Source of the DNA: Calditrichia bacterium
Lineage (GTDB): Bacteria; Calditrichota; Calditrichia; RBG-13-44-9
NCBI GenBank assembly: GCA_037381445.1
Contig: JARRQT010000125.1
Span: 1-23,842, forward strand
Direction: 5' to 3'
Length of the DNA stretch: 23,842 nt
Made by a program: the position numbers. Position 1 is the stretch's first letter; each line of letters opens with the position of its first letter. Positions 6,001 through 9,000 of this stretch are shown here, in pieces.

Positions 6001-9000
6001 AGTTATTCGGACATTTCATTAAATATTTGTTATGATCATAGGGGATAAAAAACATCCCGTATTTAATGGATTTGGCGGATGGCACAAATTTAGTATTTCC
6101 GCAGTTTCACGGGATTGAGGAACTGGGTCTTGCAGCTCCCGAGAATAGCGCCGGGACCGGACTGGAAACCGGAAAACGTGTTGAAGCGGGGCGACGGCCA
6201 TTGCGGATAATTGCAAGTATCGATAATTTATGGGAAAAAGACTAAGCTATTCCATAAGGTCAATTACAGGAAAGCCGCCGGCAGCATTATCAGTAAAGGA
6301 ACCTTTATCCGGAACAACATATTGAGGGAGTTCCATCATCTTATCATCTACAACGTCCATATTCGCCGATCCGCAAAAATTTCGCCCATTGTTTCCTGCT
6401 ACTTTCTTTTTTTGCTTTTCAGCGTCGCCCTGCCGGCAGGGACCGCCCCCCGGAACAGCTCCGCTTCCCATAACCGCCGCATTTAAACAAAAAAAGGGAG
6501 CCGGAAATAAAATGTTTCCAGCCCCCTTGAGATCGCGGAATTTACCGAAAACCTGCCTCCGGTCTTACTTCACCAGCAGCATATTTTTAACTTTAGTGTA
6601 ATTTCCGGCTTTGATCCGATAATAATACATTCCCGAGCTCACCCGATTGCCCAGGTTGTCCTTTCCGTCCCACTTAACCTGGTGGGAACCTGCAGAATAA
6701 CGCTGCTGGCTCAGCAGTGTTTTGATCTGACGTCCATCCAGGCTGTAGATGGTCAGTGTTACCGCTTCTGATTTCGGCAGGGAGAATTGGATATGCGTTT
6801 CCGGGTTGAAGGGATTGGGATAATTCTGTTTCAGCTCAAAATCAGTCGTCACTGTTTCAGGAGTCTTGATATCCGATGAGTTGTGGGGATCGCCATGGCA
6901 TGGCTCGCAGTCCATTTTTGCTGCAACGTTACTCTTCATTCCACTGGAGCCATGGCAGGCCATACATGTAGCGACAGTTTCAGGCGGAACATACAAGGGC
7001 GTAAACTCTCCTGCCAGATTATCGTTCAGGATCTTTGCCGCATAGGCAGCCACATCACCGGTCAGCCGGGCGCATCTTTCCTTGCGCTCGGTTGATCCCA
7101 CACCCAGACTTGCATGATTACACCATTCCGTCACGGATACGTGGCATAGCGGTGAATCACTCGCATTTTGGGCCAGCGGTTCGGTATAGTTGTTAACGGT
7201 AAAAGTGCCGTCTCCGGCGTACTGGTTGCTGAGGTCGGAGGGGAACAGGGACTGGGTATACCAGCCAAACAGTTCGGAAACCAATTTGTTCACATCCGCT
7301 TTCGCAGACACCAGTGAAATGGCAGCAGCTGCGCCATTCAGAGCCCCGCAAAGTGTGCCCCAGCCGGCACCACCGCCGCCACCATAATTCATGATCTCGG
7401 TGGGTAGGTCGGTGAAAGGTGCGCCCACCGCACCCCGCAGGGCTTCAATAATAGCATTAAATGCTCCGTAGGCGCATCCGCCGGAATAATAACTGTCGTG
7501 CCCCAGCACCCGGACTTCCTCAACATCCAGCTCAGCATACGGCCACGGCCAGGTAGGTTCAGCGAATGCTTTCTTGCTGGCGAGTGCGGAGAGGCCGGCA
7601 GCGCCCAGACCTAATCCTGCCGCATATTTGGCACTTTCTTTAAAAAACTCTTTCCTTGTGACTTTCTTTTCCATAACAGCTCCTTTGATTAGTAATACTT
7701 TGAGTGATTTAGTTTTATAGGGGTAATTTGGCTTGAAGTCGCTCGATAATTTCTTCCACTTTCCCAACCTTGCCGCCATGTGCCCGGACTTTTTTAAAAT
7801 ATTTTAATGATTCCTTTATATCCAGGTACGACCACAGTATGCCAAGTGTCATTTGATATTCACTTTCACTTAAATAATCGGGGGCAGAAGCCTGAAGATC
7901 TGTAATAATTTCCAGGCACGGACAGGTCTGCATATCGTATTCATCATTTAATATGATTCCCGGATTGGCTTTCAGCAGAGAATAAAACAGTTCGAATCCT
8001 TTCCGGAAGTTCCCCATTTTCAGATAGCAGATCACCAGTTTCTTCATAACCGGAAAATTATCCGGATCGTACCTGATTTCATCTTCAAACTCTGAACAGG
8101 CAGAGGTGTATCTTTTGATCAAAAAATAATGATTTCCCAGCATTTCGCCCATGTTACTATTTTAGCAAATATCTTACCAAATAGAGCATTGATTTCAAAT
8201 ATTTATTTGCGTTGAAAATTGTGAATTAATGTGCATGATGTGCTGTTGCTGCGAATGCAACGGTGTTCTCATGAATTCATTTCCTGTACCCCGCCCCGGT
8301 TAGGCAGGAGGCAAAGCAATATGGAGTGTTAGAAGTTGCGGGGATCAATATGAGCATTGCATTGTTGCAGGACAGTTGCAAATGCAACACTTTGCAACGC
8401 TGAGGGTTTACCTGATGCCGAGTCGCTTTATATTTCTCCAGACTGTCGTTCGATTCACTCCCAACTGTCTGGCCACCTCGGTCTGGTTCCAGTTATGGCG
8501 TTCCAACAACGAAATGAGTTGTCCCGCCTTCATTTCTGAAATCTGTAAGGGATTGGCATTATTAACCCCATCCTGCAATTCTCTCAGGTGAGGAGGCAAG
8601 CTGTCCAGAGTCAGCGACCTGTTCTTTTTCGAATGAATGCAGGCGAACTCGATGACATTTTCCAGTTCCCTGACATTTCCGGGCCATCGGTGCTTCATAA
8701 GCACTTGAAATGCATCTTCTTCAATATCACAGATGTTTTTCTGATACCGGGGTGCATATTTGCGGATGAAGTGCCTGGTCAGGTGCAGTAAATCCTCGTT
8801 CCTCTCACGCAGAGGCAGGATTTGTATGGGAATGACATTAAGCCGGTAATAAAGGTCCTCCCGGAATTTGCCGTTCCGGATGGCGTCGCTGAGATTGACG
8901 TTTGTGGCAGCGATAACTCTCACGTCCACCTTCCGTGTTTCAGATTCTCCAAGGCGCTCGAAGGTGCCATCCTGCAACACGCGAAGCAGCTGCGCCTGCA

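Follow-up and report, generated by a model that had tools for sequence, protein, structure and literature searches.

We describe a gene at 6565..7674 on the (-) strand, in the window, by which we mean the whole stretch of 23,842 nucleotides analysed from a Calditrichia bacterium, whose reading frame, domain matches and structure matches identify a 369-aa split-Soret cytochrome c homologue with a Tat-type leader and a type-A T9SS C-terminal domain (CTD). This architecture is conserved among homologues, and it co-occurs with TatC, Ccm genes and SprA/PorV/PorU. On comparative sequence grounds, we consider it probable that the protein passes first through Tat and then through T9SS to become a surface (or released) redox protein, probably dimeric, carrying iron and two haems. 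A preliminary description had proposed a split-Soret two-haem protein with a twin-arginine-type leader and a type-A CTD, and the PF09719, TIGR04183, CxxCH and leader-motif matches bear out each of these parts. Its wider wording, that folded cofactor enzymes are handed from Tat to T9SS, fares less evenly: the Tat-to-T9SS reading draws support from the comparisons below, but the cytochrome is at least as likely to be an electron carrier as an enzyme.

The helical split-Soret core (residues 41-263; 6886..7554, (-)) is recognized by PF09719 (C_GCAxxG_C_C) in the full protein (49.5 bits vs. a cut-off of 27), and a score of 179.1 against the split-Soret model NF047622 (cut-off 400) marks it as a homologue outside that equivalog. 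Its closest solved relative by sequence is the split-Soret cytochrome c of Desulfovibrio desulfuricans (PDB 1h21; E 2.6e-40), which was also the first Foldseek match (E 6.4e-17, 34% identity) to the AlphaFold model of the protein (mean pLDDT 88), followed by PorZ and PorU structures and, lower, the NucA CTD. The two cores are alike in fold, and Cys67, Cys109, Cys177, Cys201, His178 and both CxxCH motifs align between them; the protein described here differs in its added CTD and in His59, invariant among its homologues and Tyr in 1h21. We judged conservation on the best 120 sequences, query included, of 1027 passing E 1e-20; all 120, which come from NCBI, JGI, ENA and Logan sources, have the same 348-380 aa architecture. 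The four Cys are present in 120/120, His178 is likewise invariant in the alignment columns, and we infer that the Cys hold an iron or Fe-S site; the title of the 1h21 entry names a novel iron centre. Both haem c motifs, C237-x-x-C240-H241 (6952..6966, (-)) and C256-x-x-C259-H260 (6895..6909, (-)), occur in every homologue, as had been claimed. The segment that holds them is short and was modelled with lower confidence (block pLDDT 61-87, residues 231-280), which would fit haem attachment after export. On a measure whose threshold 20 of 30 solved pairs and 1 of 23 single chains attain, modelling as a homodimer gave 0.86, the highest of three controls giving 0.02; the runs shared at least 93% of their contacts, with pLDDT of at least 91. 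These figures may reflect a predictor already trained on 1h21, a homodimer.

The gene is patchily distributed, with a homologue in 6 of 86 genomes of the phylum. The best named homologue is again labeled "Calditrichia bacterium" (67%), named genomes of Ignavibacteriota and Bacteroidota share the cytochrome-CTD architecture, and a search with the CTD removed from the query returned mostly the same proteins. Twin-arginine leaders are found in the split-Soret family generally, RR being usual where this protein has RK, and passages in PMC3623810 (Shewanella) and PMC4429474 (archaea) list split-Soret proteins as predicted Tat substrates; the part of PMC5701242 that concerns the family merely names an ssc gene. 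Other tails are also found on this core: P0128 combines it with an RR leader and, by eye, a dockerin-like tail, and in P0272, placed beyond the main CTD clade, an RR leader goes with a truncated CTD that may mark a second fusion. A further homologue, L043 (G045:C5:123466-127131), has an RT leader and a frame that ends just within the CTD.

The 38-residue signal peptide (7561..7674, (-)) has a Gly-rich, weakly hydrophobic h-region and a basic c-region, with cleavage presumably after Ala38. Its twin-arginine-type motif, T6-R7-K8-E9-F10-F11-K12 (7639..7659, (-)), is the RK variant, so that consecutive Arg residues are lacking and the remaining Tat features are all there: S/T, the first Arg, Phe, a hydrophobic residue, Lys and the h- and c-regions just described. 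Arg7 is found in 119/120 homologues, as is Phe10, down to 50% identity. Residue 8 is Lys in 106 sequences, Gln in 4, Asn in 3, Gly in 2 and His, Met, Ser or Arg in one each, the last sequence being N-truncated and leaderless. The 105 (S/T)RKxF leaders and the single RR leader counted earlier can be placed against these figures: xRKxF is found in 106/120 (105 without the query) and RR in 1/120, as stated, but the strict (S/T)RKxF form in only 101/120. Ala fills the cleavage column in 93/120 homologues, and a basic residue lies within columns 31-39 in 105/120. Measured as the best 12-residue hydropathy, the h-region of the query (1.70) resembles the family mean (1.78) and that of 113 RR relatives (1.79) and is unlike that of 131 complete CTD ORFs from elsewhere in the genome (2.63), 12 of which scored as low as the cytochrome, many of them apparently leaderless. 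The h-region contains on average 2.5 glycines in the family, 2.7 in the RR relatives and 0.4 in the other CTD ORFs. In this respect the cytochrome leader resembles those of its RR relatives rather than the Sec-type leaders of this genome's CTD proteins, which are the kind that reviews and T9GPred expect of T9SS cargo. The profile search listed no TAT_signal HMM match for the cytochrome. As a gauge of chance, the loose leader pattern R[RK]xF is seen in 21 of the genome's 3162 long ORFs, and the strict pattern [ST](RR/RK/KR)xF picks out the cytochrome alone among 167 CTD ORFs.

The question of whether RK can serve as a Tat signal is informed by the HiPIP (PF01355) of the same phylum, an Fe-S protein and model Tat substrate that, according to a passage of PMC4361764, is exclusively Tat-translocated in E. 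coli. This genome's HiPIP (L047, C147:5426-5842) has the leader T-R-K-E-F, identical to that of the cytochrome, and among 16 HiPIP loci of the phylum (L047 and L071-L084 among them), 2 of which are truncated, 13 of the 14 intact leaders are RK and one is RR. HiPIP differs from the cytochrome in its unrelated fold, in a Cys after the h-region that suggests a lipoprotein, and in lacking a CTD. A survey of the best 150 split-Soret representatives at 50% clustering gave RR in 111, RK in 6 and no motif in 26 (many of them fragments) of the 143 without a CTD, and RK in 2, RG in 1, RR in 1 and no pattern in 3 (one RT by eye) of the 7 with a CTD. Against the Tat reading, the leaders of Bacteroidia members have drifted to RG, RS, RN and RT. 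The RK form of the leader, raised earlier as a caveat, is weakened as an objection by the 13/14 HiPIP leaders and by the mostly RR leaders of the CTD-less family, and we regard the RK leader as probably a real Tat signal. If so, RR-only Tat rules would miss RK substrates such as HiPIP in this phylum. Our literature search found no paper on natural RK leaders, and a passage of PMC7317946 describes Lys substitutions in the twin-arginine motif as poorly tolerated in E. coli. RKxF leaders are also found on two putative glycoside hydrolases, paralogues on C101 and C296.

The preliminary description had listed TatA and TatC as present; TatC is indeed present, and TatA was found by pattern match only. 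TatC is encoded in 24/27 genomes hosting the CTD form, and residues H12, E15, F94 and E103, taken as motif-binding from the relevant section of PMC13323110, are kept in 31/31 TatC sequences. Covariation of TatC with RK gave no clean pattern: Y100 varies in FCB hosts and is Tyr in this genome. We considered whether RR, CTD-less copies in Desulfobacterales descend from within the CTD clade by loss of the tail and return of RR. The sister branch on which this argument rests received 96/84 in a tree of 35 chosen rows (the 115-row tree being a quick version), but a single CTD clade was not rejected (AU p 0.256), which leaves the tail-loss argument suggestive only.

The type-A CTD occupies residues about 283-369 (6568..6828, (-)) and is supported by TIGR04183 (38.8 bits vs. 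a cut-off of 23), PF18962 (Por_Secre_tail; 32.6 vs. 27), the structural model and Foldseek. It is modelled as a beta-sandwich with pLDDT 92-97, and its structural matches are PorZ (5m11), PorU (6za2) and the NucA CTD (8glk). A purpose-built HMM finds the CTD in 120/120 homologues, where nearly all had been claimed. Gly314, in the L-beta3-beta4 loop, is present in 120/120 and aligns by eye with RgpB Gly699, which a passage of PMC11285876 reports to be essential; the protein ends in Lys, and the final residue of its homologues is Lys in 104/120 and Arg in 8/120. The same paper notes that CTDs can differ in specificity between species. The tail is one of 167 CTD ORFs in the genome, 161 of them with the domain at the terminus. 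The protein therefore shares with type-A T9SS cargo (RgpB, ChiA, RemA, NucA; TIGR04183) a CTD over cut-off, the beta-sandwich, the loop Gly and a host with SprA/PorV/PorU, and it differs from that cargo in its Tat-type leader, probable dimerization, covalent haem and a host without a recognizable GldLM motor.

Of the export machinery, SprA (775.8 vs. a cut-off of 200), PorV (271 vs. 250) and PorU (486 vs. 420, in a gene cut by the contig end) were found over cut-off, and a PorZ-like protein matched at full length with a score below cut-off. GldM, GldL and GldN were not found in this genome (91.85% complete), the GldN search being silent in controls too, and GldK appeared only as a 20-bit fragment. 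The absence of a detectable GldK/L/M/N motor, which the preliminary description had missed, extends across the lineage: GldM exceeded its cut-off in 0/86 genomes of the phylum and 0/2 Ignavibacteria hosts of the fusion, and the same search found it in 3/3 Bacteroidia hosts. Going by these profile searches, the T9SS motor of this lineage would be either divergent or absent. Among genomes hosting the CTD form, SprA was found in 26/27, with one match below cut-off and the single miss in a 2.3 Mb assembly, as against 0/5 non-FCB genomes with CTD-less forms; these hosts are related, and the counts are not a statistical test. One genome of the phylum has SprA together with a CTD-less RR copy. We also noted 18 PF19572 (PorV-family) matches in the genome, several of them immediately behind large genes whose CTDs score lower, and these paralogues are possibly dedicated shuttles.

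Haem attachment would be served by a ccmA/B/C/E/F-like cluster on C44, every member of which scored below its curated cut-off. The genome has 23 ORFs with at least two CxxCH motifs, and two of its cytochromes, an 8-haem protein (L062, C50:179-2986) and a 7-haem protein (L063, C115:13391-14938), combine a Sec-type leader with a type-A CTD, in agreement with the earlier statement that the other CTD cytochromes are Sec-led. Both are candidate surface electron-transfer proteins by sequence. Sec-type leaders on these two would fit a use of Tat confined to proteins whose cofactor must be acquired in the cytoplasm.

Taken in order, the steps of the mechanism that we favor would place maturation in three compartments, ending at the cell surface or in release. 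The helical core would fold in the cytoplasm around an iron or Fe-S centre held by the four invariant Cys, and cytoplasmic folding of this kind would call for exit by Tat, presumably through the RK motif shared with the HiPIP of the lineage. In the periplasm, the Ccm system would then attach haem c at both CxxCH motifs of the short segment; the protein is probably a homodimer. Finally, the CTD would direct the protein to SprA/PorV, and PorU would cleave the CTD and anchor or release the protein, whose likely role is cell-surface electron transfer alongside the two Sec-led multihaem CTD cytochromes. Because Fe-S loading in the cytoplasm, haem attachment in the periplasm and export to the surface would follow one another in series, the timing of CTD capture is open to experiment.

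Three other explanations have to be weighed against Tat-then-T9SS export. The lack of recognizable GldKLMN in the lineage would suit a protein that is truly exported by Tat and then stays in the periplasm or docks at the inner face of the outer membrane, its CTD being a FlgD-like Ig module. FlgD_ig indeed outscores Por_Secre_tail on the tail (40 vs. 32.6 bits), the CTD-less family manages without a tail, and a passage of PMC11285876 describes T9SS outside Bacteroidota as only possibly present. We nevertheless hold such retention to be unlikely: SprA, PorV and PorU exceed their cut-offs, three Bacteroidia genomes that have GldM also encode this fusion, and the CTD tracks SprA in the host genomes. 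The loop Gly and the basic C-terminal residue are also conserved in the tail, and the true flagellar FlgD, identified by eye, is a separate gene (C90:8916-9599).

The leader itself invites a different objection, namely that a change from RR to RK detuned an ancestral Tat leader, so that the protein now travels by Sec, is folded and loaded with haem in the periplasm, and keeps the motif as a relic. RR is nearly gone from the CTD clade (1/120) and usual elsewhere, c-type cytochromes are normally exported by Sec, the other CTD cytochromes of this genome are Sec-led, and one of its multicopper oxidases (C344) is Sec-led where the other (C271) has RR. The second Arg, moreover, is the more important one in E. 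coli according to a section of PMC4361764. This route seems to us quite improbable in light of the same RK motif on HiPIP in the phylum, the retention of Arg7, Phe10, a weak Gly-rich h-region and a basic c-region, and the invariance of four Cys, and it would leave unexplained the oxidases and DUF1501 proteins that pair RR with a CTD. The assembly defect in the C271 oxidase gene might also raise the suspicion that a cytochrome gene was joined to a CTD fragment in assembly or annotation. Independent assemblies rule out such a chimera for practical purposes, the architecture recurring in 120/120 homologues and in named Ignavibacteriota and Bacteroidota genomes.

The multicopper oxidase on C271 (878-3132) was put forward as a second case, with an RR leader, a CTD and a gene split into two ORFs in this assembly, and this description holds. 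At the frame change the sequence is about 33-38 codons short relative to homologues, and contigs from runs X1, X2 and X3 each add 97 letters at the joint (L050:638-639; about 1337), so that the split is most likely a 97-base assembly drop. The four runs behind the oxidase contigs represent at most three samples; the X2 and X3 contigs are from relatives rather than this strain, and the X1 contig, with 13 mismatched letters on the CTD side, may mix strains. One X2 contig spans the oxidase from the CTD to near the start, and no RNA data were listed that cover the stretch. Among the best 120 oxidase homologues, 13 have a CTD, and 12 of these have RR in the same ORF, the 13th being apparently N-truncated. 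The split gene, offered as a caveat, thus loses force given the 97 extra letters in all three runs and the close homologues that carry RR and CTD in single ORFs. The oxidase paralogue on C344 has a Sec-type leader and a CTD.

A third family suggests that the pairing is not peculiar to RK leaders or to hosts lacking the motor. DUF1501 matched 46/121 sampled Bacteroidia genomes, and we examined 50 of the 63 listed loci (30 given and 20 picked for long frames). All 22 long forms, from 19 genomes, combine an RR leader (21 by pattern, 1 by eye) with a TIGR04183 match, which exceeds the cut-off in 18, and the other 28 loci have Tat-type leaders and no CTD by our own HMM. GldM and TatC are present in 19/19 genomes with the RR and CTD forms. 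The combination of leader and CTD is therefore also seen with a canonical RR, in genomes that do encode the motor gene.

Published accounts place T9SS cargo on the Sec route. Passages of PMC10202324 and PMC11285876 give all T9SS effectors Sec signals, and sections of PMC9251779, PMC13721041 and PMC11611037 likewise describe Sec export. The exclusion of Tat substrates by T9SS predictors, cited in the preliminary description, appears as rule (ii) of T9GPred, "no Tat signal", in a passage of 10.1101/2023.03.31.535141, and Table S3 in the supplement of PMC10515386 lists a predicted Tat signal in 0/102 proven T9SS cargo proteins from five species. By term count, "T9SS" occurs 0 times in a 2026 Tat review. 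The literature searched, in which subscription journals are thinly covered, yielded no report of Tat-dependent T9SS cargo, which supplements beyond PMC10515386 could list, and none of T9SS-exported cytochromes. The pairing of Tat leader and CTD on a haem and probable Fe-S electron carrier is new here, as is the RK variant. That T9SS can take such a protein is only moderately surprising, as folded proteins are known to be moved by T9SS (a passage of PMC9251779) and T2SS accepts cargo from both Sec and Tat (a passage of PMC9127263). Tat followed by type II secretion, as outlined in that part of PMC9127263, follows the same logic, a folded protein that has crossed by Tat being taken up by an outer-membrane machine; the outer step there relies on a secretin and pseudopilus, and here on SprA/PorV, a CTD signal and a sortase.

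If Tat feeds T9SS, predicted FCB-group secretomes miss proteins that need cytoplasmic cofactors, and T9GPred, by the rule quoted from its text, discards Tat-led proteins. A broader proposition, which we hold to be somewhat less likely than not, is that T9SS may let out redox proteins in general once Tat has exported them, with cofactors loaded and even as dimers, and that a GldLM-less SprA/PorV/PorU system in Calditrichota and Ignavibacteria would display an Fe-S and dihaem protein and multihaem cytochromes. Were this true, it would amount to a route of extracellular electron transfer whose export step could do without a porin-cytochrome conduit and would be served by a lineage-wide RK Tat motif.

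A ribosome-binding site, AAAGGAG (7680..7686, (-)), precedes the ATG at 7674 by 5 nt; this site and the homologue starts both point to 7674, and we rejected an alternative start at 7779 (404 aa) on these grounds. A terminator-like hairpin of 14 pairs with a T-run follows the gene (6494..6528, (-)) as a consensus match only. ORF and domain searches place a TPR-like ORF (7715..8152, (-)) and a PAS/sigma-54 activator (8408..9772, (-)) upstream, and no sigma-54 promoter pattern was found upstream of the cytochrome gene. No neighbour is common to all 32 related loci; the most frequent are ArsR- and MarR-like regulators, assigned by eye, at 7 and 10 of the 32. Elsewhere in the window, a subtilase-like ORF (11052-12564, (+)) is apparently out of frame near 12200-12330 and has no Pfam match at E 0.01. 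Two ORFs at 15813-18121 (+) resemble, by eye, the ergothioneine synthesis genes egtB and egtD. The ORF at 18195-20795 (-), an M6 family metalloprotease, has the form of ordinary T9SS cargo, its leader being Sec-type and its tail a CTD.
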